Below the pieces are notes generated by a model. It did no database searches, had not been told where the DNA came from, and worked only from the letters and a program-made list of their open reading frames with translations. Positions 2,308-47,060 of a DNA stretch of 64,000 bases are shown in pieces. The DNA lies in contig OZ244160.1 in assembly GCA_965216325.1 (NCBI GenBank), forward strand, positions 896,001-960,000. Direction: 5' to 3'. The position numbers were made by a program, and so were the translations under genes. The stretch is from Coraliomargarita sp. GTDB taxonomy: Bacteria; Verrucomicrobiota; Verrucomicrobiia; Opitutales; Coraliomargaritaceae. The stretch's first letter is position 1. Each line of letters starts with the position of its first letter.

Positions 2308-2316
2308 TGCCTTTGT

Positions 2317-24560: not shown

Positions 24561-24817
24561 TCAATAACTATGAGTGTTCAGTTTAGGCTTTTGAGCAACC
24601 AGAATTTAGGGCGGCAAGTGCCTTTTTATGGCAACGACTGTGCCTTAGATTTTAAGGCGTTTGATTTAGTGTGTCTAAGTTACTGTGGATAAGGGGGTTT
24701 CTTTACTTCTGGGGTGCGTTTTGAACGTAGCTTTGTTGTTTTGTAAATCTTTGTGAATCAGTAGTTTTAGTGCTTTATCTGGTTGACTGCGGTAGGCCTT
24801 TGCTGGATATTAGGCAC

Positions 24818-25285
24818 ATGATCGAATCGGGTGATCAGTATATTACTAGTAATATCAGGAGTGCTGCTGATCAGGGGAACCGTGAGGACGGTTTCACTAT
24901 GGTGGAACTCATGATTGGGCTCTCTATCTTCCTTATTGTAGTTGCAAGCTGTTTTGCCTGCCTGCGGGTCGGAAATAGTATGGTGGACAATGCACGGCAT
25001 TTTACTCGTGCTTCACAGATCATGCAGACGGAAATTGAGCGGATTCGTTCAATGGCATGGGGCACGTTAACGGCGCTGCCGACTGCGGAAACCGAGCTGA
25101 CCCTTTCCTCGCAGTTTGATCACCCTGTTTATAAACAGTATACTCTAACGCGCTCGATTACAGGCACTGGGGATATGCGCACGATTACCGTGCAAGTCAC
25201 ATGGGAGGACATGACTGGCCGGAGCCATACCCGTCGCTACATCACCATGTATACGAAGGGAGGTTTGTATGATTACATTCAGTAA
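24818..25285 (+). CDS. type IV minor pilin/pseudopilin (PilV-like), cassette 1
   Basis: class III signal G|FTMVELMIGL with E5. Confidence 0.85.
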   Translation: MIESGDQYITSNIRSAADQGNREDGFTMVELMIGLSIFLIVVASCFACLRVGNSMVDNARHFTRASQIMQTEIERIRSMAWGTLTALPTAETELTLSSQFDHPVYKQYTLTRSITGTGDMRTITVQVTWEDMTGRSHTRRYITMYTKGGLYDYIQ

Positions 25286-25853
25286 GGTCGACAAGGGAAC
25301 TGCGATGTCCCGCCAGCGAACTCGTGGTTTTTCAATGGTCGAGCTCATGTTTGCAATGGGGATCCTGGTGATCGCGCTTGCTGCGATTTTACCGACCTTC
25401 ATGAGCCTGACGAAGTATCTGGTTAGTTTGGGTAATTATTCGGAAATGAGTTATGATGGACGAATGGCCGTAGAGTTGATTGCTCGGGACATCAGAGGTG
25501 CGGAGTCGCTTGAAGTTGCGGATGCAAATAGTTTGACACTGCAGCTCCCTTCAGACGCTGGAAGCGTAACGGTGACCTATGACTATCGCTATGATGGCGG
25601 AGAGGATGATTGGATTTTGTTTCGTGAGGTCACTGATTCTTCCGGAGTGACGACTTCAGACATCTTACTGACAGACCTCGCCGAGTTCGCATTTGTCTAT
25701 TATAATCGCTTGGGCAACGAGAGCACTGCGGCGTCGCGACTCACTGAAACGAAGAGCATTAATCTGGATGCCTTGATGTCACGTAAGGTCTTACAGCTAA
25801 AGAATACCGATAATATTATTTCCGCTAAATTTATGATGCGTAACGCGAACTAA
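25269..25853 (+). CDS. type IV minor pilin (PilW-like), cassette 1
   Basis: RTRG|FSMVELMFAM, IARDIRGA; start may be 25305. Confidence 0.87.
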   Translation: MITFSKVDKGTAMSRQRTRGFSMVELMFAMGILVIALAAILPTFMSLTKYLVSLGNYSEMSYDGRMAVELIARDIRGAESLEVADANSLTLQLPSDAGSVTVTYDYRYDGGEDDWILFREVTDSSGVTTSDILLTDLAEFAFVYYNRLGNESTAASRLTETKSINLDALMSRKVLQLKNTDNIISAKFMMRNAN

Positions 25854-25893
25854 GTGCGTTGGCATGGATGATTCCCAAACGGAGGATAGAAAA

Positions 25894-27261
25894 ATGAAGA
25901 CTCAGACGATAACGAACCACTCACGCAAGCGAGGCTCTGCGTTGATCTCGGCCATTATCTTTAGTGCGATTGCGTCGATTCTATTGGTCTCGTATGTGTC
26001 CTTGGCCAACATGGAACATCGAAATTCGATGCGCTCATATTTGTATTCGTCCAGTCTGAATTTGGCGGAAGCGGGGATCGAGTATGGGGTCAATGCATTG
26101 GTGGATGGTAATGCTGCAAACCATACTGAATGGGTGGATTCCGCAACCAATCTATTCACGGACGGGCGATTTGGAGGAAATGTGAAAGTGGTGATTTTGG
26201 ACGCATCTTCGAGTAGTCCTACAATCTATGCAGAGGGGCGCATGACAGGACATCCTGCCGGGGATGTGATTAAGCAGTTACGTGCTGAACTGAGTAGTGG
26301 CTTTCAGCCTTTTGAGCATGGTTTTGCCACTCGAAATGGGATCTCGTTTAGTGGCAGTAATGTGTTTTTAGATAGCTATAATTCGAAGTATGGGGCCTAT
26401 GGTGCCTCATTGCTTGGAAGCTCGGCTCCCAGTGGTTATGGTTATCTTGGTCGTAATATCAATGATGATATATCGGTCGCCACTGAAGGCTTACTGGCTC
26501 AGCAGAATGGCACAGTTTATGGACTAGTGGAAGTGGCGGATCCTTCTGGGCTGTCGTTGAATAATGGGGAGGTCAAAGAGTATGGAGGAAGTCATGATCC
26601 CAGCCGGATCGAATATGATTTTTATGCAGACTTTCCGGTACAGTCTCCGCCGACTACGGGGGTGACAAAAATTTCCAACATTAGCAACACTACGACTCTA
26701 ACGACTGGCACCTATGAGGTTAGTGCCATTAGCTTGTCTGGTAATGGTAAGAATCTGAGTATTTCAGGTGATGTGACGCTCATCGTCACTGGAGATGTTT
26801 CATTCACCGGTAAAAGCTATCTGAGTGTGCCAAATGGTTCTCAGTTGACCATGTATGCGGACGGAGACGTGTCTATTGGGGGCAATGGTCTCATTAACGG
26901 TAGTGGCGTGCCGGAAGATGTCTTTATTTATGGCACTCAGGATGCGGTTAAAGATGCTTCTGGAAGTGAATCGGCAGGCCAAACGATTAAAATCGCAGGT
27001 AATGGTGTGTTGTCTGCTGCGGTGTATGCGCCGGGGGCCGATTTAGAGCTTAAAGGTGGTGGTAGCAGCGGTGATGTGTTTGGGGCTGCGGTCGGCTACA
27101 CTGCAGTGGTTACCGGTGGTAGCTCTTTTCATTTTGATGAGGCTTTGCGTGATATTGTCGAAGGTGGAGGCTCTTACACAATTGAAAGTTGGTTGGAGAT
27201 GACGAGTGTGTCTGTCGCTTCAACTCCAATTGATATGTCTGCTTATTCGGATACTGAGTGA
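25894..27261 (+). CDS. PilX-like large minor pilin with C-terminal beta-rich domain, cassette 1
   Basis: RKRG|SALISAII (no E5), LNLAEAGIE, C-terminal YAPGA...GAAVG...FHFDEAL...W.E. Confidence 0.85.
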   Translation: MKTQTITNHSRKRGSALISAIIFSAIASILLVSYVSLANMEHRNSMRSYLYSSSLNLAEAGIEYGVNALVDGNAANHTEWVDSATNLFTDGRFGGNVKVVILDASSSSPTIYAEGRMTGHPAGDVIKQLRAELSSGFQPFEHGFATRNGISFSGSNVFLDSYNSKYGAYGASLLGSSAPSGYGYLGRNINDDISVATEGLLAQQNGTVYGLVEVADPSGLSLNNGEVKEYGGSHDPSRIEYDFYADFPVQSPPTTGVTKISNISNTTTLTTGTYEVSAISLSGNGKNLSISGDVTLIVTGDVSFTGKSYLSVPNGSQLTMYADGDVSIGGNGLINGSGVPEDVFIYGTQDAVKDASGSESAGQTIKIAGNGVLSAAVYAPGADLELKGGGSSGDVFGAAVGYTAVVTGGSSFHFDEALRDIVEGGGSYTIESWLEMTSVSVASTPIDMSAYSDTE

Positions 27262-27275
27262 GAAGACCCTTTGTT

Positions 27276-28402
27276 GGGTGTCGGACGAACGAGTTTGCGA
27301 GGCCTGGGCACGCGACCCTTACATGCAATATTTTTGCGGTGAACGTTACTTCCAGTGGAAGCTTCGCTGTGAGCCGACCGAGTTGGTACACTTCCGTCAC
27401 CGCATCGGCCAGGAGGGCGTGGGAAAGATCCTAAAGATGACGGTGGGGTTGCACGCCGAGAAGGTGGAGCAAGAGGATGAACTTGTGGCGGACACGACTG
27501 TACAGGAAGCTAATGTGAAGTTCCCGACCGACACACGTTTACATGTGGAGTGCATTGAAAAGCTCTGGCGTCTGGGAGAGTCCGAGTCGGTTTCGTGGCG
27601 CCGCAGTTACGTGCGCACAGTGCCCGTCCTGTTGGCCCGGTTGCGCACCCGCAGCAACCGCCTGGTCAAAGAGCGGAAGAAGTGTCGCCGTAAGATCAAA
27701 ACGATCGCAGAGCGCTTATTACGTGACTTCAAACGCAATGTAGGCACGTCCGGGGAACTGCTATACGCCGAAAGTCTTGAGTTGATCGAGTGGGTGCTTG
27801 GGCAGAAGCGACACAGCAAGAATAAGGTCTACTCGCTGCACGATCCGGATGTGCTGTGCATCGCCAAAGGCAAGGCGCATAAGAAGTATGAGTTCGGCAG
27901 GGAGGCCTCGGTGACGATGCTTCGCGACAGTGGCGTGATCGTCTCAGCAGTGAGTTTTAAGGAGAACCTTTACGACGGAGACACTTTGGAACCGGCGCTG
28001 GAGCAAGCCTTGGAGATGGCCGGAAAAACCTTCAGCAGTGTGCTCGTTGACAAGGGCTACCGTAGGCGCAAGAACGTGAGTGGAACCGAGGTGGTCATTC
28101 CGGGAAAGATTAGCAAAAAGCTCAGCTACTACCAGCGGAGTAAGCAACGAAAACGAAATGGCCGGCGAGCGGCCATCGAACCGGTGATCGGCCACCTCAA
28201 GAACGACTACCGAATGGCAAGATGCTTCCTCAAGGGAGCTGAAGGAGCCGGGCTGAATCTCGGGCTGGCCGCTGCTGCTTGGAACCTCAAGAAGTGGATC
28301 AACGAGCTTCTTTTTGCCTTCGTTATATGCTTCGGTCGCAACTTACAGCCACGCGAATTCTATCATCAACCTGGAATTGGATCGGCTCAAAGGGGCGCAT
28401 AG
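27276..28402 (+). pseudogene. IS5-family DDE transposase, 5'-truncated
   Basis: DPYMQYFCGE, ADTTVQE..FPTD, KVYSLH, YEFG, VDKGY, RAAIEPVIGHLK; ORF-track start lies inside the upstream pilin gene. Confidence 0.85.
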
Positions 28403-28420
28403 GGCTTTTTAAGGCACGAC
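27276..28420 (+). mobile_element. IS5-family element remnant (left end and transposase N-terminus missing)
   Basis: homology begins abruptly at VSDERVCEAW; putative right end GGGCTTTTTAAGGCACGAC followed by TA. Confidence 0.8.
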
Positions 28421-29215
28421 TATTCTACGGATGATGATCCCTCGGCGGATCAACAGACGGGAACAGGAGGTAGTGAGTCTGACATTGTTGGCGGTTCGTT
28501 TGAGGGCGAAGACTATGCGGCGCTCTACAAGCAATTTGATGGAGATGATCTAGCTTTTCGCCTCCGTTTGGGCGCCGACAGTAATCCAACTGGGTTTAAT
28601 TCTGCTGCGATCATTGCGCTCGATCTGGGGAACGATGGCATTCTGGATTTCTATATTGGTGTTCAGGTCAATGGTGTGAATGGAAACATTAACCATGATG
28701 TTGGTATCTATCAATTTACAGGCTTAGCGACCAACCCGAGTAATACACAGAGCGCATTGGCGTCACCTTCAGATCCTTTAGTTTCGTATGAGGGGCGCTA
28801 TGATTGGTCTCCGGTGTCGAGCATTGATCCTGATGCTCCTGCAGATCTAGATGGTCTTGGCGATGACGACTATTTCCTCTCATTTTCGGTCGATTTCATG
28901 GACTTGGTAACTGCTATCGACGGGACGGGTTGGACCGATTCAGAGGGCAATGGTCTCAGTGCATCCACACCGCTGTCCTTTGTGGCGATTACATCGCAGA
29001 ATCTGAACCAGATTAATAACGATTTCAACGGGATTGAGGGCACGGATACCAATTCGACGACACCTTGGACAGATCTCGGCGGGACTTCGGAGGAGTATAG
29101 TCCTGAGTCGGAAGAGCCATTGGGAGCAGTGCCTGAGCCACCTAGCTACGGTATTATACTTGGAGTGCTTTGTTTGCTCTTTGCGGTTTTTAGCCGACGT
29201 ATCTTAGGCCGATAG
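28421..29215 (+). pseudogene. PEP-CTERM protein lacking its N-terminus
   Basis: VPEP + TM + RR tail; protein-like frame runs from 28421 (YSTDDDPSADQQTG...) and is bounded by the in-frame TAG at 28400; no signal peptide and no start codon before the internal TTG at 28568. Confidence 0.8.
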
Positions 29216-29553: not shown

Positions 29554-29982
29554 ATGGATAAATCCAGCAAAGGTAAGCAGGGCTACTCTTTGGTAGAAGT
29601 AATGGTTTCGATGGTCGTGATCAGCTTCTTTGCCGCGGGTGTATATGGCTGTCTGATACTATCGACTAAGATTTATTCGAGTGGGCGCGATGTCGATGAG
29701 GCAAACCTGATCCTACAGTATGAGATCGAGAATATTCGTGGGCAGCGCTGGGATGAGATCGTTAAGCTGGAGAGTAGCAGGAACGTGGAAAGTGTTTCAC
29801 TGGAACCGTATGGCGATGCTTATACACTGAGCCGTGAGATCGATAGTTCGACTGATGGGATGACCAAGGTGACGTTTACCGTTAGTTGGCAGGACCGCAA
29901 CGGTGCGGTTCGTGAATTGAGCAGTGGAGATGTCGCTTACACAGAGAATGGTCTGAGTGATAGCCACTACCGGGAGTATTAA
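29554..29982 (+). CDS. type IV minor pilin (PilV-like), cassette 2
   Basis: KQG|YSLVEVMVSM; paralog of 24818-25285 (ILQYEIENIR..W / IMQTEIERIR..W; V.W.D..G; YTENGL / YTKGGL). Confidence 0.86.
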   Translation: MDKSSKGKQGYSLVEVMVSMVVISFFAAGVYGCLILSTKIYSSGRDVDEANLILQYEIENIRGQRWDEIVKLESSRNVESVSLEPYGDAYTLSREIDSSTDGMTKVTFTVSWQDRNGAVRELSSGDVAYTENGLSDSHYREY

Positions 29983-29984
29983 CC

Positions 29985-30623
29985 ATGCCGCAGAAGACTC
30001 AATATCAGTTGAACGAAGAGCGCCGCCGTGGGTTTACCTTGGCGGAGTTAGTCTTTGCGGCTGCTATCTCGCTGTTTGTCTTGATGGTCGCGCTCGGCCT
30101 GTTGATCACCATGCTGAAGTCCGAGGCGAAAAATTATAATAACATTTCTATGGATCAGGAGGCTAAGGAGTTTTTGACTCACCTGACTCGAGATGTTCAA
30201 GCTGCCAGTGAAGTTCTGACTGCTAGCAGTCAAGCGATTGATTTGGAGTTACGTCGTTACTCGTCGAACGAAAGCGCAGATATTGAGTATGTCGGCTACT
30301 ATTTAAAGCAGATCGAGGGATCGGATGATTACTATATCGTCCGTGAACTAACGGATTCGAGCGGTGATGTTAGCCAGAAAGAATTTTTCAAACTCGCTGG
30401 CAACAATGGCACCATCGGAATGGTCAGCATGAAGGCGCAGATTAAAGACGATGCGGTCGTCTACAGTGCGGAATTTTATGATACCCTGCGTGAGGCAACC
30501 GACGATGCCGAAGAGGTGCGCTTTATCAGCTGGGAATTCCCACTTTACTACGAGGCAAGCAATATGACTTTCAGCCGCAAGGTGACGTCTCCGCTGATTA
30601 TGCTGCGAAATAAAAGCAGCTAA
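29985..30623 (+). CDS. type IV minor pilin (PilW-like), cassette 2
   Basis: RRG|FTLAELVFAA, LTRDVQAA, C-terminal MLRN like MMRN of its paralog. Confidence 0.86.
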   Translation: MPQKTQYQLNEERRRGFTLAELVFAAAISLFVLMVALGLLITMLKSEAKNYNNISMDQEAKEFLTHLTRDVQAASEVLTASSQAIDLELRRYSSNESADIEYVGYYLKQIEGSDDYYIVRELTDSSGDVSQKEFFKLAGNNGTIGMVSMKAQIKDDAVVYSAEFYDTLREATDDAEEVRFISWEFPLYYEASNMTFSRKVTSPLIMLRNKSS

Positions 30624-30675
30624 GCCCTTTCCACGAACACTTTAAATACCCTTAGCCCAACAAAACCCAACCCAA

Positions 30676-32547
30676 ATGCGACCTATGAAAAACCCAAAAC
30701 AAGGCTCTGCGCTCATCTCGGCAGTTATTGTCATTATCATCATCGGTGTGATTATCGGCAGTTACCTGAGTTTGACGGTTTCCGAACGTAAAGCTGTGGA
30801 GCGTAGTGTGCTCTTCGATCTTGCGATGGATATCACGGAGACTGCGGCTGAAGACGCGGTTCACACGCTGAACGAGAACACGAGCGAATATTGGCGCAAG
30901 TGGTCGGATCGCACAGTGGATGGTCAAGCTGCCAAGTATAAGGCAGTTTCTGGAATTGAGATGGGCAATGGTCGTGAAGGCTCGTATAAGGCTGTCATCC
31001 TTGGAGCTGGCACGGACAATCCGCGTCTGATAATTGAGGGCACGGTGAATAGTCCGTTGCTTGGTGATGTAAAACGCCAACTTGCGGTCAAACTGAAGAC
31101 CCGCGGCATTTTCGGAAATGGCTTAACCTCACCGGATGCGGGTGATGGCAATGCCAAGATTACGTTTACCGACGATGATATTTTGATTACCGGCTATGAT
31201 TCATCGCAGGGCGCTTATACACCAACAGGCAATCGCTCTGACAGTGTTCTGGTTGCTGCAGAAACCGAAGTGAACTACGCGCTAAATATCGAAGGGGCAG
31301 AAATCTTTGGTAGCGTTGCGACTGCTGGAGGCGTTCTCGGAGAGAGTGGTGCAACCGTTATTGGACAGGATAGTTCGCGTGCGTTTGGGGTCGATACGGA
31401 GCGTGTTTATGACAACTACTATGCGAATGCGCCTGAAGTGAATGCTCCAGCGATTGAAGGTGCACTTACTGATTTGCCGAATCCTGTAGATGGCGAGATC
31501 ACAATCGGTGAAAATTCCGAAAGCTACGAAGTGAAGAATCTCGATGTGGACAAGGACGAAGAACTCGTCGTCGTTGGACCGTCGGTTATTGTGGTCACCA
31601 AGGATGCTGAAATCGAGGGTGACATCGTGTTCGAGTCGGATGGCAGCCTCAAGCTCTACGTTAAGGATGACCTTACTATTTCGGGGGATGTTTATATGGC
31701 TGATGTCGATGCCGGTGATTTCATTATTTATGGCACTGCTGAGAATCCGGGAGGCAATGGAGATAATCTTTCAGAAATTAAGTTAAATCATCTCGGTGAG
31801 CTGAAGACTGGTATTTTGGCTCCAAATTCGTTGGTCATTTTCGAGAAAGGAGAACGCTCCGGAGGCGCTGGTGACGGTGGCTCTGGCGGCAGTGGTGGTT
31901 CTGGTGGTTCCGGTGGCTCTGGCAAGTCTGGAGGCTCTGGCGGTTCCGGTAAGTCCGGTGGCAGCGGTGATTCCGGTTCCGGTGGCTCTGGCAAGTCTGG
32001 AGGCTCTGGTGGTTCCGGTAAGTCTGGCGGCAGCGGTGACTCAGGTTCTGGTGGTTCCGGTAAGTCCGGTGGCTCTGGTGACTCAGGTTCTGGTGGTTCT
32101 GGCAAGTCCGGTGGTAGCGGTGACTCCGGTTCCGGTGGTTCTGGCAAGTCCGGTGGCAGCGGTGACTCCGGCTCCGGTGGTTCTGGCAAGTCCGGTGGCA
32201 GCGGTGACTCCGGCTCCGGTGGTTCTGGCAAGTCTGGTGGCAGCGGTGACTCCGGTTCCGGTGGTTCTGGCAAGTCCGGTGGCAGCGGTGACTCCGGCTC
32301 CGGTGGTTCTGGCAAGTCCGGTGGCAGCGGTGACTCCGGCTCCGGTGGTTCTGGCAAGTCCGGTGGCAGCGGTGACTCTGGTTCCGGTGGTTCTGGCAAG
32401 TCTGGTGGCAGCGGCGGTTCGAGTTCGCAAGGGGACAACGGCTGGGGTAATGGAGATGACGCCGCACCAGGTGGCAGTGGCGATAAGAATAACGCTGAGA
32501 ACAGTGACCGAGTGCACCACATTCATGGTGCTGGTAACCCAAACTAG
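30676..32547 (+). CDS. PilX-like pilin N-terminal fragment ending in a Gly/Ser repeat array
   Basis: KQG|SALISAVIV; paralogous to 25894-27261 up to ILAPNS; then GGSGKSGGSGDSGS repeats and a GDNGWGNGDD tail. Confidence 0.85.
   Translation: MRPMKNPKQGSALISAVIVIIIIGVIIGSYLSLTVSERKAVERSVLFDLAMDITETAAEDAVHTLNENTSEYWRKWSDRTVDGQAAKYKAVSGIEMGNGREGSYKAVILGAGTDNPRLIIEGTVNSPLLGDVKRQLAVKLKTRGIFGNGLTSPDAGDGNAKITFTDDDILITGYDSSQGAYTPTGNRSDSVLVAAETEVNYALNIEGAEIFGSVATAGGVLGESGATVIGQDSSRAFGVDTERVYDNYYANAPEVNAPAIEGALTDLPNPVDGEITIGENSESYEVKNLDVDKDEELVVVGPSVIVVTKDAEIEGDIVFESDGSLKLYVKDDLTISGDVYMADVDAGDFIIYGTAENPGGNGDNLSEIKLNHLGELKTGILAPNSLVIFEKGERSGGAGDGGSGGSGGSGGSGGSGKSGGSGGSGKSGGSGDSGSGGSGKSGGSGGSGKSGGSGDSGSGGSGKSGGSGDSGSGGSGKSGGSGDSGSGGSGKSGGSGDSGSGGSGKSGGSGDSGSGGSGKSGGSGDSGSGGSGKSGGSGDSGSGGSGKSGGSGDSGSGGSGKSGGSGDSGSGGSGKSGGSGGSSSQGDNGWGNGDDAAPGGSGDKNNAENSDRVHHIHGAGNPN
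31861..32427 (+). repeat. coding tandem repeat, 42-bp unit (GGSGKSGGSGDSGS)
   Basis: ten GDSGS units, nine of them at exact 42-bp spacing (32038-32374). Confidence 0.95.
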
Positions 32548-32575
32548 TTTAACGCTGACCAATTGATTCTTTGTT

Positions 32576-32582
32576 AAGGAGG
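32576..32582 (+). promoter_or_regulatory. strong Shine-Dalgarno site
   Basis: AAGGAGG 4 nt before ATG 32587. Confidence 0.75.
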
Positions 32583-32586
32583 CTCC

Positions 32587-33591
32587 ATGAAATATTTTAA
32601 ATTACTGAATGTCGTCACTGCTCTGATTCTTGGGGGAGTTTTGATCGCAACGCCGACACACTTACACGCAAAGGACGGAGACTCCGGTTCTGGTGGTTCC
32701 GGTAAGTCCGGTTGCAGCGGTGACTCCGGTTCTGGCGGCTCCGGTAAGTCGGGTGGCAGCGGAGACTCCGGCTCTGGTGGCTCCGGTAAGTCTGGCGGTA
32801 GCGGAGATTCCGGTTCTGGCGGCTCTGGTAAGTCTGGTGGCAGCGGTGGCTCTGGTGGCTCCGGTAAGTCTGGCGGTAGCGGAGATTCCGGTTCTGGTGG
32901 CTCCGGTAAGTCCGGTGGCAGCGGAGATTCCGGTTCTGGTGGCTCCGGTAAGTCTGGCGGTAGCGGAGATTCCGGTTCTGGTGGCTCTGGTAAGTCCGGT
33001 GGCAGCGGTGGCTCTGGTGGCTCCGGTAAGTCTGGCGGTAGCGGTGACTCCGGTTCTGGCGGCTCTGGTAAGTCCGGTGGCAGCGGTGGCTCTGGTGGCT
33101 CCGGTAAGTCTGGCGGTAGCGGTGACTCAGGTTCTGGCGGCTCTGGTAAGTCCGGTGGTAGCGGTGGCTCTGGTGGCTCCGGTAAGTCGGGTGATTCGGG
33201 GTCCGGTGGCTCTGGTAAGTCTGGTGGCAGCGGTGGTTCTGGCGGCTCCGGCAAGTCGGGTGATTCGGGGTCCGGTGGCTCTGGTAAGTCTGGTGGCAGC
33301 GGTGGCTCCGGTAAGTCCGGTGGCAGCGGTGGTTCTGGTAAGTCTGGTGGCTCTGGTGGCAGTGGCGGATCCGGTGGCTCAGGAGCAATACCTTCAGATG
33401 ATTTTGAAATCCATGGTGCTGTAGTCGCATGGCAGATCGAAGGCCGATCCGAGTTTGACTTCTATTTCGATGAACAGCTCAAGGATAATGGTGGTGAAAA
33501 CCCAACCTTCCGAGTCCATGAGTGGACTGAGTTGATCGATGCTGAAGATAAATATGACTTCGACAGTTTGAACGAAGAACAAGCGCAGTAA
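32587..33591 (+). CDS. secreted Gly/Ser-repeat protein carrying the C-terminal segment of the PilX-like domain
   Basis: Sec signal MKYFK...LHA|KDG; about 235-aa GS array; C-terminal EIHGAVVAW...FYFDEQLKD...HEWTEL aligns to the end of the cassette-1 PilX. Confidence 0.85.
   Translation: MKYFKLLNVVTALILGGVLIATPTHLHAKDGDSGSGGSGKSGCSGDSGSGGSGKSGGSGDSGSGGSGKSGGSGDSGSGGSGKSGGSGGSGGSGKSGGSGDSGSGGSGKSGGSGDSGSGGSGKSGGSGDSGSGGSGKSGGSGGSGGSGKSGGSGDSGSGGSGKSGGSGGSGGSGKSGGSGDSGSGGSGKSGGSGGSGGSGKSGDSGSGGSGKSGGSGGSGGSGKSGDSGSGGSGKSGGSGGSGKSGGSGGSGKSGGSGGSGGSGGSGAIPSDDFEIHGAVVAWQIEGRSEFDFYFDEQLKDNGGENPTFRVHEWTELIDAEDKYDFDSLNEEQAQ
32674..33384 (+). repeat. coding Gly/Ser/Lys/Asp tandem repeat array (mixed 14-, 12-, 11- and 9-aa units)
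   Basis: same peptide repeat as 31861-32427 with partly different synonymous codons. Confidence 0.95.
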
Positions 33592-33598
33592 TTTTTGC

Positions 33599-33631
33599 AA
33601 AACCTCCGAACCCGCTTTTCGGAGGTTTTTT
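33599..33631 (+). terminator. intrinsic terminator closing pilin cassette 2
   Basis: AAAACCTCCGAA/TTCGGAGGTTTT stem with T tail. Confidence 0.8.
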
Positions 33632-33693
33632 GTGCCTATCACGCAGCAGTTAATCGATTGCTACAGATGCTCTATTCTTTTGTTTTATGATTG

Positions 33694-34540: not shown

Positions 34541-36625
34541 TTAGTCCAGTAGCTCTAACAGATTGGCAAAGTCGTCAGTCCAGACCATTTGACGCTCTGC
34601 AATGTCGTCTGGCCATTCATCGATGTAGGCGAGCACTCTTGGATGTGAGAGAAACTCGGTATTATTGGAGAGCAGTATCCAGCGGGAACGTTTAATGAGT
34701 AAGGAAGGATCGCGCTCCCTGAAAACCACAAGTGGCTCCATTTCAAGTGCTCTAGCGGTGCCATAGAGCAAGGGTTGGAGATCGAAGAATTTATTCGAGA
34801 TGTGTATGGCTAGGATTCCATCGGGTTTAAGGTGCTGACGATAGAGTTCGAATGCCTCCATGGTTAACAGGTGGATTGGAATCGCGTCGCCGCTAAAGGC
34901 ATCCATTGCCAGAATATCGAACTGTTGTGAGCCACTTTTGTGCAGCTCACGTTCGAGTGAAATACGTGCATCTCCGATCACCACTTCAGTGTGATTACCT
35001 CGGCGGTCAAGATAAGTGAAGTGGTCGCGAGCGAGCGTTTCGACATCGGGATCGATCTCGTAATAGCGATAGCGGTCGTATTCGCCCTGATAAGCGCTCA
35101 ACGAGCCAGTTCCCAGTCCGATGATGCCGATATGAAACCCTTCGGTGCTCCCATCCCGTTGTGCTGTTCGAATAGGATGTCGGCGGATTGCGAGTCCAAC
35201 ACCGCTGTGGGCTGCGTAATAACAGTTTGGGAAAAACTCACGTTTGGGATCTTTTGCCTGCAGGCCATGATTAATGCCACCGTGATATAGTTTTATGTGA
35301 GGTGGTCGTCGATCATTTGAGCCACTTTCAAGCACGCGCATGACGCCATAGAAATTGCGAGTCGTCGCGAGCACGCCTTCGTGAAAGCGTGCTTGGTAGG
35401 AATTCATGAATAGCCCGAGGACAAGTAAGACGGCAACTAGAGCAGAGGTGAGTGGTATTCGGAAGATCTCTAGGCGCTTATCTTTGAAGAGGACAAGCCA
35501 GGCTGCGACAGTTAATGTGAGGATGAAGATGAGTGGGAACTCCCAGTAATCGCTGAAGACCTGAGGTGCGATAAAGGTGACAAAAAGACCGCCGAGCGCA
35601 CCTCCGAAGGAGATCGTCAGATAGAATAGCGTCAGATGCTGACTTGGTGGCTTTAAACGAACTAGTTCACCATGGCAGACCATACAGGCGATAAACATGC
35701 CTCCGATATAGACTGCGATTTGTGTGCTGATCCCTGCAATATCCAGATCGTAGTGTCTGTTTAGAAAGAGAAAGATTACTGGCACGATCAGTAGAAATGC
35801 CGAGAGCCAGATGCGACGTTTATACCAATGCGAGTTGTCGAAGCAGATAATGAAACTGATCAGATATAAACTTAGGGGAAGCACCCAAAGGAAGGGGATG
35901 ACTGCTACGTTCTGGCATACGAAGTTGGTTGCCGAAAGAAGGAGAACCGAACCACTTGCGGAGAGTAGTAGCCACAGGCATAGGCTGCCTAAGGTATAGC
36001 CTCGGTCCTTTGTTGCCTGCTGTGTTGGGGCAGCGTATTTCGTCGGTTTGGCATGTCTAGATACCAGCACCGCACTGGCGGTGCAAATCAGCACGAAGCA
36101 GGCGTATCCGGCTGACCAAAAGACCGTCTGCGTGCCGACCCCCATGTTGGGCTCAACGATAAAGGGATAAGTGATGAGACCGAGTAAAGAGCCCACGTTA
36201 GACAGCGAGTAGAGTCGGTAGGGGGAACGGTCAGGATAGGAGCGACTAAACCAATGCTGCAAGAGGGGCCCTGTTGATGAGATGATCATATACGGGATGC
36301 CGACGGTCGATAGCAGCAGTAAGATGAGCCCGAGTTCGGGTGAGCTGGCATCGGTAGGCTTTAGGTGCTCGCCGGGAGTGATTGGCAACAGGAACAGCGA
36401 TACTAGCAGTAGTGGAATATGCGCCCAGGCCTGGCGCTTTGTGCTGAGTGTATTACTCAACAGGTGTGCATAGGCGTAGCCCAGCAAGAGTCCGACTTGG
36501 AAAAAGAGCATGCAAGTGCTCCAAACGGCAGGGCTGCCGCCATACCAAGGGAGAATGTATCGGGCGATGAGCGGTTGCACCTGAAACAACAGGAATGCGC
36601 TCACGAAGATCGTTATGGCATACAT
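34541..36625 (-). CDS. fused membrane protein / spermidine-synthase-like SAM methyltransferase
   Basis: about 12 TM (FQVQPL, PYRLYSLSNVGSL, CHGEL) then GLGTG, YEIDP, GDAR, MDAFSGDAIP.HL, WTDD. Confidence 0.88.
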   Translation of the reverse strand: MYAITIFVSAFLLFQVQPLIARYILPWYGGSPAVWSTCMLFFQVGLLLGYAYAHLLSNTLSTKRQAWAHIPLLLVSLFLLPITPGEHLKPTDASSPELGLILLLLSTVGIPYMIISSTGPLLQHWFSRSYPDRSPYRLYSLSNVGSLLGLITYPFIVEPNMGVGTQTVFWSAGYACFVLICTASAVLVSRHAKPTKYAAPTQQATKDRGYTLGSLCLWLLLSASGSVLLLSATNFVCQNVAVIPFLWVLPLSLYLISFIICFDNSHWYKRRIWLSAFLLIVPVIFLFLNRHYDLDIAGISTQIAVYIGGMFIACMVCHGELVRLKPPSQHLTLFYLTISFGGALGGLFVTFIAPQVFSDYWEFPLIFILTLTVAAWLVLFKDKRLEIFRIPLTSALVAVLLVLGLFMNSYQARFHEGVLATTRNFYGVMRVLESGSNDRRPPHIKLYHGGINHGLQAKDPKREFFPNCYYAAHSGVGLAIRRHPIRTAQRDGSTEGFHIGIIGLGTGSLSAYQGEYDRYRYYEIDPDVETLARDHFTYLDRRGNHTEVVIGDARISLERELHKSGSQQFDILAMDAFSGDAIPIHLLTMEAFELYRQHLKPDGILAIHISNKFFDLQPLLYGTARALEMEPLVVFRERDPSLLIKRSRWILLSNNTEFLSHPRVLAYIDEWPDDIAERQMVWTDDFANLLELLD

Positions 36626-39690: not shown

Positions 39691-39754
39691 GTAGAAGCGG
39701 CATCTTGCCGCTTCGTTTTAGGCTTGGTCGAAAGCGGCTAGAAGCCGCTTCTAC
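39691..39754. repeat. GTAG-type REP doublet
   Basis: GTAG-AAGCGGCATCTTGCCGCTT ... AAGCGGCTAGAAGCCGCTT-CTAC; the CTAC end supplies the TAG stop of the adjacent minus-strand gene. Confidence 0.78.
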
Positions 39755-40578
39755 TTTAGTAGTTTGCGGAAGGCGTCTTCCTGAATCCAGCCAGTTGCGC
39801 CGCCTTCGGTTTCGATTTTGACGAATTCGCCGTGTTGGTCGAGTTGCTGTGCGCGCTCGGCTGGGCGCACGGTGCCACTAATCGGAGCAACGCTGGCGGG
39901 TGCCGCGTGAAGGTCCTGAGTCTCGTTGATGACGAGAATGCCCGTTTGCTGAATGGGGGCCGTGAGGATGCTACCAGCGAGGGCGGCGGCGATCACGACC
40001 AGACTGATGGTCCGAAGAAACTTAATTCCCAGTCCGGGCGTGCGACCGCTCATCTTTGGGAGAAAAATACTTGCGAGTGCAAACCAGATACTGGCGGCTC
40101 CGAGGAGCACCCATTGTTGCAGCGTGAGTGATTGGGCTGTTAGTTTGAACCAATTTGCCGAGCTGGCAAAGAGTCCCAGCTCTTGGCGTAGCGCATCGAG
40201 CTTGTAGCGATACTCTCTATTGTGCGGTTCCAGGACGAGTGCACGCTCAATTTGCCACGCGGCTTCGGCAGGCTGCTCAAGTTGGTAGTAACTGAGTGCA
40301 AGGTTGTGACGCACGGCCGCGGTCTCTGATTCGTTGAGTGCAGCTTCAAACTTCGATACTGCCGAGGTATAGTTTTCTGCTGAGTACGCCTCGAGACCAT
40401 CGTTGAAGCTGTCTGCGGTCCCAGCTGTAGTAAATACGAGCATGAATAGAGTTAGTATCGTAATCGTTGCTCTGGCGGGATGCCGTCCTCGGCGTCCTTC
40501 CGAATTAGACCCGCGGACAGCGGGGACGCTGTCCCTCCAAACTCTGGGAATATATACGGTTTTTGCTGAGAGTCTCAT
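39751..40578 (-). CDS. BatE-like TPR + TM + SH3b protein
   Basis: TPR (HNLALSYYQL...ERAL.LEP), two TM, SH3-like KIET..GATGWI; true start may be further downstream. Confidence 0.8.
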   Translation of the reverse strand: MRLSAKTVYIPRVWRDSVPAVRGSNSEGRRGRHPARATITILTLFMLVFTTAGTADSFNDGLEAYSAENYTSAVSKFEAALNESETAAVRHNLALSYYQLEQPAEAAWQIERALVLEPHNREYRYKLDALRQELGLFASSANWFKLTAQSLTLQQWVLLGAASIWFALASIFLPKMSGRTPGLGIKFLRTISLVVIAAALAGSILTAPIQQTGILVINETQDLHAAPASVAPISGTVRPAERAQQLDQHGEFVKIETEGGATGWIQEDAFRKLLK

Positions 40579-42311
40579 AGTGCTTTGAGAAGAGGTTCGA
40601 GTTGTGCTTGCTGTTCTTTCCAGTCGTCATTGCTGCTTTTGTCCGAGAAGCGAAGGGCATCCGCGCAGGTGAAGATCGTTGCAATTGTTTGCTTGTTCGA
40701 GTCACTTGCGACGTAGTCTAGTAGCTGGTTTTGTTCTGCGTTGCGCAGATTACGCTTTGCTCTTTTTGAGAGAACAAGACGGATGGCCATTTGTGCGTGC
40801 AGATAAAACTCTTCACAATCGGCAGCACTCGCCGCACTACGGCGGGCAGTCTTTAGTTCCTTTGTGCAAGCCTGCTGCATGGCATAGTCGGGGTCCTCCC
40901 TTAAGCGTCTGTTGATGCAAGCACGGTAGCTAAGGCTAGCGAGTGTAATGAATCCTGCCAGGTTGATCAGCACGAAGGATATGCTGGCAAACGGATTGGC
41001 AGCATCCACCCGGCGAGCCGACGTTGAGCGATAATCGAGGGTGAGTAGGGCTTCTTCGGGAGTGAGTGCTCGGCTGAGGTTCTGCTCTAATTCCTGGTCG
41101 GATTGTTCTGCTTGGGATTCTTGCAAAATCGGTGTTGTCGCGTGCTGGCGGCCTTGCTCAACGCTAACTTCCAGGGATGGGCTGGTATATTCGATGTATT
41201 CAGACTTCTCTGGATCGAAGAAGGAAAATGTCACTTCCGGTGTTTTTAGCGTGCCCGTCCGTTTGGGGATCATGACGTAGTCGAAGCGTTTGGCTTGATT
41301 GTCTCCTTCGCCTTCGATCTGTGACTCGGGGGCATAGACTTTCCAGTCGTTGTTGTCGGGCAGTGCTGGCCCCTGAATGCGTTCGAAGTTTCCCTTACCG
41401 GTGAGTTTGAGCGAAAGCATGATGGGTTCGCCGGTTTTGGTGTTGTCGAGATCCGTGCTGACTTGCATTTGGAAGTCGCCGATGGCGCCTGAAAAGCTTG
41501 TTGGTTGGCCCTCGGTAGGAAGCGGAAGCACGTTGATAAAGACGGGGTCGGCTTTAATGGGGTAGCGCTGTTGGGTTAAGATGCGAACTTGAGATAGGAT
41601 TGCGGTCGCGCTGAGTTGCTGCTCGGGGCCTTGTTGAATGGCTGTGACTGTCATTGGCCAGCGTAGTAGTTGGTAACGGCGTCCATTTACTGTCGTTGTG
41701 CTGCGCGTAGGCGTGGCTTCTGTCTCGTTAATGCTGAAGCCATCTCCCTCTAGTTGTGCGCTCTCGTATTCAACTCGAGAGACACGTTCGTGCAGATAGA
41801 GGTTCGCATAAATGTCGATACTTTGACCAATGAACATTTCTTTTGGGGCATCAATACTGAGGAAAACCTGTTCGTCCGCTGTAGGTTCATTGCGTCGTTC
41901 GACGACGGTTAGGGATGCACTGGGGATCGTATACTCGTTGCCTTTGTATTCGATGTGATAGGCTGGTACGGAGAATTCTCCTAAGCCATTGGCAACCACT
42001 TCGACCTGCAGATCTATTGAAGTTTGGTAGAACCAGCGTCCGTTCACGCCGCTTTGTCTTTGTGATTGGTTGCCCCAACCGCCGCGGCGAAATTCTAGAC
42101 CGCCGATATTCGGTCCAATTGGAAGCGTTTCAAACCGTTCGATTTCAGGCGGTTGCTCGCTACTGGTTTCTGTTAGGGTAATCACGTAATAGGTTTGTTG
42201 CCCTTTGGCGATGACCTCCGGTGTGAAACGAGTGCTGAATGACACCTCCGCATGAAGGAGCTGTGCAAGGAGGCTAAGTAGAAAAAACGCAATTATTCGA
42301 AACTGAATCAT
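40575..42311 (-). CDS. batD: BatD-family protein
   Basis: signal peptide, VLPLP..GQP..FSGAIG, G.GN, FSFFDP...Y motifs; position in bat operon. Confidence 0.85.
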   Translation of the reverse strand: MIQFRIIAFFLLSLLAQLLHAEVSFSTRFTPEVIAKGQQTYYVITLTETSSEQPPEIERFETLPIGPNIGGLEFRRGGWGNQSQRQSGVNGRWFYQTSIDLQVEVVANGLGEFSVPAYHIEYKGNEYTIPSASLTVVERRNEPTADEQVFLSIDAPKEMFIGQSIDIYANLYLHERVSRVEYESAQLEGDGFSINETEATPTRSTTTVNGRRYQLLRWPMTVTAIQQGPEQQLSATAILSQVRILTQQRYPIKADPVFINVLPLPTEGQPTSFSGAIGDFQMQVSTDLDNTKTGEPIMLSLKLTGKGNFERIQGPALPDNNDWKVYAPESQIEGEGDNQAKRFDYVMIPKRTGTLKTPEVTFSFFDPEKSEYIEYTSPSLEVSVEQGRQHATTPILQESQAEQSDQELEQNLSRALTPEEALLTLDYRSTSARRVDAANPFASISFVLINLAGFITLASLSYRACINRRLREDPDYAMQQACTKELKTARRSAASAADCEEFYLHAQMAIRLVLSKRAKRNLRNAEQNQLLDYVASDSNKQTIATIFTCADALRFSDKSSNDDWKEQQAQLEPLLKAL

Positions 42312-42323
42312 AGCTAAAATCGT

Positions 42324-44375
42324 TTACCAGTCTTGAACCGGACGTGTGCGCCCGGATGGGGCTTGGTCGGTTTGATCGACAAAGGGGAGAAGTTGTTCGC
42401 TGTTTTGCAGCATGTCCAGTAAGCGCTGTGCATCTTCTTGTGTCATGCCTTCGAGCTGGACCGGTTGGGTGGCGGCTGGTGCTCCGTCTTGTTCGCCTGC
42501 TTCATTTTGTTGTGGCTGCGGAGTCGCTGATTCTTCGTCCTGTTCGGGTTCTTGTTCGTCTGAGTCAGGCTCGGGGAGTGGTTGGGATTCCTCGTTGCTT
42601 TGTTCTTCGCCTTCCTGTCCCGACTCTGATGGTTGAGTGTCTTGCTGCGACTCGTCTTCGCCGTCGGAGCTTTCGCTTTCTTGCTGTTTTTCTTCGCTTT
42701 GATCGCCTTGCTGATCTTGCTGGCTCTCATCCTGTGAGCCGGAGTCGGATTGCTGCTGCTCGGACTCGCTGTCTTGTTCCTCGTCTCCGGATTGTTCTTC
42801 CTGGTTTTCTTCGGGCTCGCCTTCGCCTGAATCGTTTTCCTCGGACTCTTGTTCGTCGCCGTCTTCAGAGTTCTCCTGATCTTGCTGTTGCTCTTGTTGT
42901 TTTAGGAATTCTTCGAGCGCCTGGCGCCGTGCTTCGACGAGTGCGGCGTTCTCGAGTGCTTGCTGGTCGTTGGGGTCGACTTCGTGCGCAGCTTTGAACG
43001 TGGCTTCGGCTTCTTTCCAAGTCGCGATGGCAGTCTCAAAGTCTTGTGACTGAAAGGCGGCCTCTCCGTTTTGAAAGACGCTGTGCGCCATGTTGTAGAG
43101 TGCGTCCCGTTGTAGCTTCAGATCGGCACTTTTCGAGATGGATTCACTGAAACTCTGAAGTGCGGTTTCGAATTTCGCATTCTCGATCTGTTCGTATCCT
43201 TTGTTGTAGAGCACTCGTGGATCGGTGACTGATTCGATTGGTTCAATCGAGGGAACGTCTTTGTCCAATACTTCGGTGTCGAGTGGGAGGCTTTCTTCGA
43301 TTGCGGGTTCAGCTTCTTGAGCTTGGCTTGGCTGTGGTGCGAGCAGGTTCAGTAAGATCAGGCTCATGGCCAATTGGGCGATGGGCCCTTTGCGCCTCCG
43401 TATCAAGATTTCGACTACAAGCAATACACAGGCAGCACACAGGGCCCATTGATATCGCTCGATGCGACGTTCCTGCATTTCGGACTCACGTTCGGAGCGA
43501 GGTAGGGTGGCAATGACGCTGCTGTAAAGTTGATCAAGGGATTCGTCGCTGAGCCGGCTATAACTGCCATTGGTGAGTCGTGCGAGTTCCTGCAAGGTAC
43601 TCTCGTCGAGTTGGCTGCGGACTGGTTGCCCTTGGGCATCGCGCACAAACTCTTCGGTGCCATTGGGCTTTCTCGTTTTGAGATATTCACCTTCAGGTGT
43701 GCCGATGCCGATGGCGAAGATCTTGATGCCTTCGGCTGTAGCGCTCTCTAGTGTCGGAATGGCTGTACCTCCAAGGTCTTCGCCATCGGTTAGCAGGACG
43801 ATGGCCTTGACGTTGTTTTCATTTGGGAAGGCCTTGATCGCTTCACCTAGGGCATTGCCCAGATCACTACCGCCACGCGTCATGCTTGCAGGAGTAATGG
43901 CATCCAGACTTTCTTTGAAGGCCGCGTAGTCGAGTGTCGGTGGGGTTTGCAGGAAAGCCTGACCAGCGTAAGCAACGATGCCGATACGATCACTCTCCAG
44001 ACGTTCAACCAGATCGAGGATTGCTAGTTTAGCGCGTGCGAGTCGTGTTGGGCGCAGGTCTGTGGCCAACATGCTTTTGGAGCTGTCGAGCACAAAGACG
44101 ATATCTAGGCCGCGAGCTTTGCGCTCGCTCCATTCGACTCCGTATTGTGGTCGGGATAAAGCAATCGCGATTGCAGTGAGCCCCAGTGTCAGGAGCACAG
44201 CCTTAATCCAAACGCGTGTCACACTTGCTTTTTCAGTGAGCTTCTTGAGCAGGCGGGGTGCAGCAAATTGACTGAGGAGGTTTTCACGCTGACGGAGTCC
44301 GTAGTAAGTTAGGCCTGCGGTGATCAGTGCAACGACAGGTGCTAAGTAGAGCCATATGGGGTTTTCGAACGTCAT
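42324..44375 (-). CDS. BatB/BatC-like fusion: VWA + TPR + acidic low-complexity region
   Basis: RPQYG, LDSSKSM (MIDAS), LLTDGED, TPR, E/Q/S/D tract, C-terminal QDW. Confidence 0.88.
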
Positions 44376-45409
44376 GGCAGGCGGCGATAGCGTGTGTTAC
44401 TGAGCAACTGTTCTAGGGCAATCAATAGCAGTCCAAGGTAGGTTGGCCAAATAAAGTATTCAGTGAAGCTGGCGTAACTGCGCAGTTCAACTGCAGTGGT
44501 TTCGAGCTCGTTGATATGTTCGTAGATTTTTTCCAGATCACCGTCTTGCTCTGCTGTGAAGAATTGTCCCCCGGTCATCTCGGCTATTTGCCTGAGTTCT
44601 TCTTCATTGTAGTTGGACCTCATGGTGTCTCCACGATAGAGCGGATTGCCATCACGATCTCGGCGGACCAGCCCTTCGCGTGTGGTTACTGGAACTGGCA
44701 CGCGTCCTTTGCGACCGGTGGCGATGGTGTATACTTTCACTCCATAAGCTTTGGCGGCTTCGGCAGCTCCAATTGGTGTAATGCTTCCTGCGTTATTTTC
44801 GCCATCTGTGAGTAGGACGACAATACGACTGAGTGCTTCGTGATTTCGTAATCGATTGATGCTGGCTCCGAGTGCAGTGCCGATGGCAGTCCCGCCCATT
44901 TCGATGTCACCGAGTTCCAGACGCTGGACATTCTTTTTGAGCCAATCGTGATTTAACGTCAGAGGGCTAACGACGAAGGCCTCGGATGCAAATGCGACTA
45001 ATCCAATTCGATCGTAAGGACGCTCGTCGATGAAATTCTGCACCACATGTTTGGCTGCATCTAAGCGGGTGACCATGTTTTCACGGGTGGCTAGATCGAG
45101 TGCGACCATTGACCCTGATAAATCAAGGGTGAGCACAATATCGATGCCTTCAGCTTCAGTGCTATCGCTGGTCTTACCCATTTGTGGACGAGCCAGCGCG
45201 ATAATTAGGGCTGCCAGCCCCAGTAGTCGCAGCCCGAGAAGAACTTTGCCCGGAAGACTGCGACGTGAGCGACTGAGGCTCTTGACAAACTGTGTGCTTG
45301 AGAAGCGGACTGCTGCTTCCGGTCCCGTGCGACCTGTCCACCATGCGATTACAGGTAGTAATAGTAGTAGCCAGAAGAAAATTGGATCCTGAAATTGAAA
45401 GAAGGTCAT
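44372..45409 (-). CDS. batA: BatA-like VWA domain protein
   Basis: [37 protein letters not shown]. Confidence 0.9.
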
Positions 45410-45960
45410 TTTGTCTGTGCCTCCTTTTCTGCTTGGTGGACGGTTTCGATAAACTGAAGTGCAGTATCTGAAAGCTTGATACGCTGTTTTGGAGAAAGAC
45501 TGGCCTGGGCGAATTTAATGGTGTCGCACTGTTGAAAGAATGCCGTCAGTTCTCTTTCAGAGATTGGAAAGTTTGGTGGCAAGTGCGCTAGGGTTTCTTG
45601 GCTGGTTTGTGCGAGAATTGAGCGCTTTAGTTTACTATCGAAATAGTGGCGCACAGCTTGGCTGAGTGTTTGTATATATTCACGGTCATCGCCTCCGGCC
45701 TGTTCAATCGTAAGGCGTGCGATCTGCTCGGGCGAGTGACTGGCGGGGCATTTTGCACGTGAGCGGAGATAACGAACGAGCCAGCTGGCCAGGATTCCAA
45801 AGAGGATTGCTGCGAGCAGCCCCATGCAGATGAGTTGCCAGGTTTCAAACAGTGGAATTTCGACCGGGCCTCGCACAGAATCCAGCGAAGGGCCTGCCGG
45901 CAGTTCGGGGAGTTGGCCGGCTTGAGCAGGATCTGATGCACTGGGATTGAGTAGGGGCAT
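45406..45960 (-). CDS. bat-operon membrane-anchored protein (DUF4381-like)
   Basis: single TM, AQTSQE and CDTIKFA motifs, position between DUF58 and batA. Confidence 0.75.
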
Positions 45961-45970
45961 TGTGTGATAC

Positions 45971-46084
45971 TTGAACGTCGAACATTGAACATCGAACGTT
46001 CAATTTTGAACGTGTTGTGATCGTAATTTTATTTCGTGTTGGAATTCGGCATTCGGTGTTGGGCGTTCAGTGTTCGACATTCGC
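45971..46084. repeat. inverted heptamer micro-repeat element
   Basis: TTGAACG-TCGAACA-TTGAACA-TCGAACG-TTCAATT-TTGAACG facing TGTTGGG-CGTTCAG-TGTTCGA-type units. Confidence 0.7.
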
Positions 46085-46099
46085 GCGACGTGCTTCGCG

Positions 46100-46981: not shown

Positions 46982-46993
46982 GTGTGGATACGT

Positions 46994-47054
46994 CTTAATC
47001 GTAATCAGATCACTCACGAGAGAGTATGATTAAGATTAGGAGTAAGATTAAGAG
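46994..47054. repeat. inverted hexamer micro-repeat element (second copy)
   Basis: CTTAAT-CGTAAT facing GAGTAT-GATTAA-GATTAG-GAGTAA-GATTAA. Confidence 0.68.
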
Positions 47055-47060
47055 TTATTC

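Follow-up and report, generated by a model that had tools for sequence, protein, structure and literature searches.

In the 64,000-nt window analysed here (Coraliomargarita sp., a marine, non-pathogenic Verrucomicrobium, contig OZ244160.1, positions 896,001 to 960,000; all coordinates below are positions in this window), a minor pilin gene of the cap type is divided between two adjacent, co-oriented open reading frames (ORFs), the cut falling exactly at the conserved GGGSSG loop of its family. ORF1 (30676-32547, 623 aa) encodes the body of the pilin and ORF2 (32587-33591, 334 aa, in the same reading frame) its missing C-terminal end, and each runs at the cut into a long Gly/Ser array. The gene for this cap-type minor pilin has undergone an inherited fission, and we consider it quite likely that the pair specifies a real and conserved two-chain cap pilin bearing a beta-solenoid, with refolding in trans as the most likely mechanism. 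The window contains two three-gene minor-pilin cassettes, both on the + strand: cassette 1 (24770-27261), the last gene of which is an intact single-chain paralog, and cassette 2 (29554-33591), where the split gene occupies the corresponding place.

The N-module of ORF1 (residues 1-396, 30676..31863), delimited by profile match and alignment, opens with a hydrophobic pilin-type N terminus without the glutamate at position 5 (Glu5); at the putative cleavage site, after KQG and before SALISAVIV, the residue at +5 is serine. It continues as a pilin-like sheet and most of a beta-solenoid of the ice-binding protein (IBP) type, and ends ..APNSLVIFEKGERSG at the GGGSSG loop. Array 1 (31864..32418; G 97, S 63, K 13, D 11, A 1) follows, its GGSGKSGGSGDSGS-type repeats taking up 185 aa, and then a non-repeat tail of 42 aa, ..QGDNGWGNGDD..HHIHGAGNPN, with its TAG stop (32419..32547). 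The spacer to ORF2 is 39 nt long (32548..32586). ORF2 begins with a putative signal peptide (32587..32670), read by eye as MKYFK, a hydrophobic core and then LHA before the predicted cut and KD after it; its n-, h- and c-regions are of the Sec type and it has no lipobox, so that the second half of the split gene would have an export signal of its own. Array 2 (32674..33372) is of the same repeat type as array 1, to which it is 73-81% identical in DNA, and 233 aa long (G 121, S 81, K 18, D 12, C 1), and the C-module with its stop codon (33406..33591; 61 aa, EIHGAVVAWQ..FYFDEQL..WTEL..DFD) supplies the missing C-terminal strands of the family. No second copy of the ORF1 tail or of the ORF2 signal peptide is present elsewhere in the genome, and comparison of that signal peptide with the pilins' own N termini gave no significant likeness (against shuffles, 0.02 was reached in one of eight comparisons, and at the DNA level the score did not leave the shuffled range).

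An earlier, sequence-only reading of this locus had described the two ORFs, their shared frame and two intervening stops, and its coordinates are borne out (TAG at 32545, TAA at 32575-32577, ATG at 32587), as is the Shine-Dalgarno sequence that it assigned to ORF2, which we find as AAGGAGG at 32576-32582, 4 nt upstream of the ATG. The repeat lengths it gave, about 190 and about 235 aa, become 185 aa plus the 42-aa non-repeat tail in ORF1 and 233 aa in ORF2. The terminator that it placed after ORF2 fared less evenly: a terminator-like hairpin followed by a U run does lie 3' of ORF2 on the + strand (33597..33635), and folding of 33589-33640 gives -16.7 kcal/mol (z -4.33, with 0 of 200 shuffles as good), but a consensus terminator scan did not list this hairpin.

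That ORF1 and ORF2 are two parts of one protein is seen most directly from profile hidden Markov models (HMMs) of the family. The family alignment was cut within its conserved motif, between APNxxVxLxGGGSSG and xxxGAVV, and an N-side HMM (389 positions) and a C-side HMM (57 positions) were built from 11 intact relatives in other genomes and searched over the genome's full set of 58,193 stop-to-stop ORFs with a minimum length of 30 aa. Just two ORFs match the N-side HMM, ORF1 (E 1e-73, positions 9-385 of 389) and the paralog (E 1.4e-130), with the next value at 0.096, and just two match the C-side HMM, ORF2 (E 1.6e-8, positions 2-54 of 57) and the paralog (E 3.7e-21), with the next value at 0.55. 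Given these matches and the alignment, ORF1 and ORF2 are exact complements, to a degree well above chance, with the break at the Gly-rich loop, two adjacent genes that jointly cover one full-length pilin, and the split pilin proposed in the sequence-only reading is confirmed. Pfam is less clear: family DUF7305 matches ORF1 at 28.4 bits (positions 48-161 of 185; gathering cut-off 27 bits) in a six-frame search of the genome, but hmmscan against Pfam lists no family for ORF1 or for ORF2, the C terminus of which has no DUF7305 match even at E 10. The label 'PilX-like' given to the protein earlier fits only its architecture, which is that of the solenoid-bearing PilX/ComZ type, although Pfam scans list no PilX family.

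The same two genes occur in the same synteny in a second species of the genus (G002; 75% identity), where an ORF1-type gene (a 596-aa open frame) and an ORF2-type gene (288 aa) have the same order and frame. A comparison of relatives for split and fused alleles, which had been suggested for this locus, thus finds the split form in G002. The G002 ORF1-type frame stops inside its array and lacks the ORF1 tail; a 33-nt spacer with in-frame TAG and TGA codons comes next, and the ORF2-type gene comprises a comparable signal peptide, an array and a C-module. Its signal peptide, MKYFKLLKILSLLIAAGAFSVTPTSLMA followed by DG (LMA before the predicted cut), is 50% identical to that of ORF2 and has the same layout. 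Synteny between the two species extends over 14 kb, in which identity is 79-95% for flanking genes and 62-76% for pilin genes. The C-modules are 78% identical, with 16.0 changes at 146 non-synonymous sites against 35 at 34 synonymous sites, and the N-modules have 142.8 changes at 902 non-synonymous sites against 216 at 277 synonymous sites; synonymous sites are saturated between the two species. Both modules are under purifying selection and the pair has been kept in the second species.

The fold of the intact paralog indicates what the separated C-module would contribute. Its AlphaFold2 model (predicted local distance difference test, pLDDT, 81.3; predicted template modelling score, pTM, 0.74) shows a beta-rich body, a small sheet and, at the N terminus, a long helix; the loop lies between strands 372-388 and 393-407, and three strands come after it. 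The best Foldseek match is the Thermus competence pilin ComZ (E 1.4e-6). In structural alignment the model matches FfIBP, an ice-binding protein (4nu2), over residues 136-416 (Z 18.7, root-mean-square deviation 2.5 A, 192 aligned), ComZ (6qvi) over residues 136-423 (Z 13.7, 3.5 A, 211 aligned, ~13% identity) and the pilin TT_C0855 (6qvf) over residues 45-135 (Z 7.8); the FfIBP and ComZ matches both reach past the loop, to residue ~416-423. As predicted for the paralog, then, the protein would be a pilin domain with an IBP-type solenoid from which the last strand or strands return, and given this fold the C-module would correspond to the solenoid's end together with the last strand of the pilin domain. 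When ORF1 residues 1-396 and ORF2 residues 262-334 were co-folded, the chains being folded without alignments, the score was 0.92 in all three runs against 0.00 for the best of three controls; the mark used is reached by 51 of 78 solved complexes and by 2 of 108 mismatched pairs. Agreement between the runs is 90% of contacts or more, and the partner pLDDT is at least 72. This prediction, which had been proposed as a check on the split domain and its C terminus, was therefore passed, and it supports binding of the two halves.

We suggest the following sequence of events. ORF1 would insert into the inner membrane through its N-terminal helix of the pilin type, its domain lying in the periplasm, and ORF2 would be exported by the Sec pathway, its signal being cleaved after LHA. 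Either chain alone would be an incomplete fold. In the periplasm the solenoid's last strands and the pilin sheet's final strand would come from the 61-aa C-module, which would pack on helix alpha-1; this two-chain protein, together with the two small pilins encoded upstream, would prime and cap a type IV filament. The opened loop would then present two free, disordered, near-neutral Gly/Ser chains of about 170-245 residues with a Lys/Asp pattern, and our guess is that these act as a flexible spacer, a brush or a carrier of modifications. Two exported chains completing one fold in trans had been put forward from the sequence, and this prediction is now supported by the HMM complementarity, by the second species under purifying selection and by the co-folding.

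The relatives of the two modules point to a common origin. In a tree of 46 N-modules, ORF1, its G002 counterpart and the proteins P0001 and P0002 form one clade (Shimodaira-Hasegawa-like approximate likelihood ratio test, SH-aLRT, 100), and a protein search with ORF1 residues 1-396 returned two matches, which are P0001 and P0002. P0001 is a 377-aa fragment from a third lineage, 76% identical to ORF1 and 79% to G002, that ends before the array. P0002 (425 aa, 45% identical) lacks a C-module and closes with an acidic tail behind its N-module; there is a weak, non-significant likeness (E 2.1) between its residues 390-400 (KGNNGHGNNLD) and the part of the ORF1 tail encoded at 32425-32460 (QGDNGWGNGDD). 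The nearest intact N-modules to this clade are those of G181 and G159. The C-module of ORF2 scores best with G002 and then with the intact relatives G214, G159, G181 and G132, its own paralog ranking 39th of 45. Since the nearest intact relatives of both modules are in the same genomes, the halves derive from one gene, which was not that of cassette 1.

In a phmmer search with the 71-aa C terminus of ORF2 against 1.84 billion representatives there were four matches, of which P0005 (490 aa) and P0006 (466 aa) are true and intact, P0003 is a spurious repeat protein and P0004 is 3809 aa long. ORF2 residues 262-334 had no match among proteins of 183-585 aa, and the C-module alignment had none among proteins of 35-158 aa. 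Among the 101 genomes within the family, the ORF2 C terminus is matched at E <= 0.01 in four: G000, G002 and two with weak matches inside long ORFs.

The loop at which the gene is cut tolerates large insertions elsewhere in the family. Both HMMs were applied to loci fetched from relatives, a non-random sample in which several were picked for long ORFs, and in 35 of 38 distinct single-chain ORFs the gap between modules is -1 to 5 residues, the other three having inserts of 101-270 aa. Two of these inserts, in G150 (L030:2620-3435) and G249 (L032), are 270 aa long and consist of (DK)n repeats and two Cys-containing CHxPPGNPxNxxTL modules, and the third, in G156 (L035), has 101 aa with (DAPDK)n and one such module; in G036 (L039) an ORF with a loop insert of (DDT)n/(DDDGK)n repeats runs off its contig. 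Pfam has no match for the inserts or for the CHxPPGNPxNxxTL modules. The four insert-bearing ORFs form a separate clade (SH-aLRT 100), and because single-chain genes of another clade carry large inserts at the GGGSSG loop we consider it an insertion hot spot. An origin of the split clade inside the insert clade was considered and is not what the tree shows: the clades are separate, and the deep branches, with support of 82-83, leave open whether they are sisters. We note also two broken copies of the family, likely pseudogenes, one in G271 (L046, G271:C33) with TAG and TAA and one in G181 (L047, G181:C7:663275-664399) with TAA.

The arrays themselves raise the question of whether variation is the function of the locus. 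TRF (Tandem Repeats Finder) reports arrays with a 42-nt (14-aa) unit at 32002-32414 and 32676-33193, as well as wider rows, and the repeat DNA of both is confined to this locus in the genome. In this species and G002 each array is 168-245 residues long and roughly 80-85% Gly+Ser; Lys and Asp bring the net charge to between -2 and +5, and to judge from this composition the arrays are probably disordered. It had been argued that the two arrays favour different synonymous codons; Gly, Ser and Lys codon use is in fact near-identical, and only Asp clearly differs (GAC 10 and GAT 1 against GAC 5 and GAT 6). The unit structure and length of the arrays differ between the two species, so that arrays appear to turn over with their rough length kept. 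Recombination between arrays could in principle delete the middle piece and leave a single-chain pilin with a Gly/Ser loop, or alter the length of the tails. Such a phase or length switch, which was the second proposal of the sequence-only reading, would draw on the common frame of ORF1 and ORF2 in both species, on the 20-mers shared between arrays (27 of 27 in frame, the longest shared exact run being 27 nt), on internal exact repeats of 119 nt (the longest in array 1) and 68 nt, which make length change likely, and on the difference in array structure between species. The arrays are, however, just 73-84% identical in DNA, the split state has been kept in both species while synonymous sites became saturated, and no joined allele or variant letter is present in the contigs of four sequencing runs, in which rare variants are invisible. 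A deletion between the arrays would be one-way and hence no switch, and since the 42-nt unit is a multiple of three, slippage would alter length and neither frame nor on/off state; a contingency gene of the phase-variable kind is thus not what we find. We consider the proposal unsupported and such a switch improbable.

It might also be supposed that the locus is decaying, a nonsense mutation having arisen in an expanded loop array, with ORF2 a leftover frame headed by a chance ATG and the whole a pseudogene, and broken family copies do exist among relatives, in G271 and G181. The C-module is nevertheless conserved at non-synonymous sites (16 changes at 146) in the face of synonymous saturation, the Sec-type layout of the signal is retained in both species at 50% identity, the two in-frame stops and the start are at the same place in both species, and in each species the reading frame of both arrays has remained intact for 168-245 codons. 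Decay is therefore very unlikely.

A further explanation accepts both genes as functional and dispenses with reassembly: ORF1 would be a shortened cap pilin able to fold in the absence of the final strands, and ORF2 an independent secreted Gly/Ser protein with a C-module that binds something else, for example another pilin. P0002 offers some precedent, as it ends after its N-module and a short acidic tail and no partner was found, two metagenome scans included, for this protein known without gene context. The predicted contacts speak against it, since ORF2 residues 269-316 are placed against ORF1 residues 372-392 and 134-177 and helix 51-66 in about 300 contacts, that is, against helix alpha-1, the sheet of the pilin and the N-module's last strand, and in the modelled intact paralog the matching strands form part of the core. 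ORF1 and ORF2 moreover adjoin, are co-oriented and have one terminator-like hairpin after both. We accordingly give an ORF2 unconnected with the ORF1 fold very little credence, and return to a fold completed in trans.

Since the repeats break every short-read contig, and neither array is spanned, the arrays might have been mis-joined around a middle piece from elsewhere. A single 3.06-Mb contig makes up the genome (99.98% complete), in which the middle piece is unique to this locus, and in the reads consulted (four runs from one sample of one study, possibly the source, seen as contigs and thus blind to rare variants) a contig of 414-415 nt bridges the middle piece into both arrays with 0 differences in all four. 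In the independently assembled G002, a stretch without interruption carries, in the same order, N-module, array, stops, signal peptide and second array. An assembly artefact is therefore extremely unlikely. Word depth in X1 is 428 for the middle contig and 432 and 403 for the flanks, depth not being equal to copy number; a single 255-letter contig per run accounts for loose ends at 31977 and 32752. Read-through of both stops into one long chain, suggested by the common frame in both species and by spacers of 39 and 33 nt, both multiples of three, can be all but dismissed, since each spacer has two different stops (TAG and TAA here, TAG and TGA in G002), the product would bury a hydrophobic signal within a periplasmic chain, ORF2 has its own start and, in this species, a strong AAGGAGG, and a shared frame is expected by chance once in three in species that are not independent.

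Several observations weigh against a two-chain cap pilin. The full split pair is seen in only two genomes, and an ORF2-type protein was found in none of the three protein searches; the G002 copy has a run of 98 Ns inside the array of ORF2, and its ribosome-binding purine tract is weaker. No contig spans either array in the four runs from one sample. Hmmscan of the ORF1 protein lists no DUF7305, in contrast with the six-frame search. The co-folding result may only mirror the likeness of the halves to intact folds that the method has learned. The genes for the remaining machinery (three secretin, four platform and one prepilin peptidase, Peptidase_A24) all lie away from the cassettes. Expression of the pair, cleavage of ORF2 and assembly into a filament are predictions from the genes and from models of their products.

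Within cassette 2 the split gene is preceded by two small minor pilin genes. The first (29554..29982, + strand, 142 aa) has a prepilin N-methylation motif (Pfam N_methyl, E 2e-7) and a weak XpsI/GspI-like NCBIfam match below cut-off, and is 69% identical to its G002 ortholog; the second (29985..30623, + strand, 212 aa) also has the prepilin motif (N_methyl, E 1.9e-4), with weak HpsC/PpdB-like matches below cut-off and 71% identity to its ortholog. Both have Glu at +5 after the predicted cleavage Gly, in YSLVE and FTLAE respectively, where the large proteins of the locus have Ser. Cassette 1 has a similar pair (24770-25285 and 25269-25853, + strand, both Pfam N_methyl; G002 orthologs 70% and 62% identical), followed by the intact paralog (25864..27261, + strand, with a likely start at 25894; 455 or 465 aa), which matches DUF7305 (PF23981) with 74 bits over positions 41-185. 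Two N_methyl genes thus lie directly upstream of the solenoid-bearing pilin in each cassette, and the arrangement is the same in G002. Between the cassettes (27206-29215) there are an ORF for an insertion sequence (IS)-type transposase (DDE_Tnp_1, DUF772) and a gene for a small PEP-CTERM protein (28568-29215); in G002, where the cassettes are only ~540 nt apart, both are missing.

Farther away, two adjoining genes for T2SSE-family ATPases (355 and 459 aa) are found on the - strand at 1243-3696, ~25 kb upstream of the cassettes. The window also contains an IS110-family transposase gene (8228-9313), a gene on the - strand for a 694-aa membrane protein with a match to a fused MFS/spermidine synthase subfamily (34544-36625; 86% identical in G002) and, again on the - strand, a row of BatA/BatD, von Willebrand factor A (VWA), DUF58 and MoxR-type AAA genes (39754-48056) that resembles an aerotolerance operon.

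Whether the cut has itself been selected is a separate matter. It could be adaptive, placing two Gly/Ser 'streamers' of ~200 residues at the cap and making completion of the pilin depend on the supply of ORF2, as a periplasmic checkpoint for filament priming, but we regard this as doubtful. Were it so, the locus would be a natural two-component split-protein system in the tip of a type IV filament, giving the tip a property impossible with a closed loop. Irrespective of this, the DUF7305 solenoid pilins have one loop at which insertions of hundreds of residues, or even a break of the chain, are tolerated, which bears on the diversification of pilus tips, and the loop is possibly a display site. 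We note too that such loci are a trap for annotation, as ORF1 resembles a truncated gene and ORF2 a low-complexity hypothetical protein.

Completion of a pilus subunit by another polypeptide is familiar from donor-strand complementation in chaperone-usher pili, in which the fold of a subunit is completed by a beta-strand from the next subunit or from the chaperone. That system differs in having an Ig-like fold, another machine and a donor that is not the dedicated second half of the same gene; an incomplete Ig-like fold is not what we see here, the paralog model being a pilin domain with a beta-solenoid. Closer relatives, within the family, are the single-chain proteins with loop inserts (G150 L030, G249 L032, G156 L035 and G036 L039), which share the loop and carry 101-270 aa of charged low-complexity repeats there, although, unlike in ORF1 and ORF2, the chain is uninterrupted, and three of the four have one or two CHxPPGNPxNxxTL modules.

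In architecture the nearest described proteins are ComZ and the cyanobacterial PilX. The ComZ report describes, in Thermus thermophilus (6QVI), a large triangular IBP-type beta-solenoid inserted in a pilin-like domain before the last strand or strands, with a proposed position at the filament tip (PMC6561018), and a 2026 paper describes the same solenoid design in cyanobacterial PilX, among cap pilins without Glu5 (PMC13759059). Location at the tip and, for ComZ, DNA binding are further marks of this type. These proteins and cassette 2 have in common a solenoid within a pilin domain, an N-terminal helix without Glu5 and a small cluster of minor pilins. ComZ and PilX are single chains, whereas here the chain is cut in the last part of the solenoid, its end is supplied by a second product, predicted to be Sec-exported, and both cut ends carry long Gly/Ser arrays.

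In gene organization the closest parallel is the major pilin of Geobacter sulfurreducens. Literature searches on DUF7305 returned nothing, and those on split pilins or strand complementation, on pilin gene fission and on Coraliomargarita pilins returned no split cap pilin; even so, the statement in the sequence-only reading that no such system had been described is too strong, since fission of the Geobacter gene into PilA-N and PilA-C (GSU1496/GSU1497; 61 aa + 104 aa) is known, PilA-C having its own signal peptide and both chains forming one heterodimeric subunit (PMC5174107, PMC11046646). The two cases share a type IV pilin encoded in two adjacent genes, the second with a signal peptide, and differ in that the Geobacter cut is at another point and without arrays, whereas here a cap-type minor pilin is cut at a hot-spot loop, at residue 396 and before the last 61 residues; a relation in sequence between the two is not expected. 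Because of this position in a cap-type minor pilin, ORF1 and ORF2 would work like PilA-N/PilA-C without being a member of that group. If our reading is correct, they represent a second independent split of a type IV pilin into two chains, after that of Geobacter, and the first case found for a cap-type minor pilin, one in which the piece supplied in trans consists of only the last few strands of the core.

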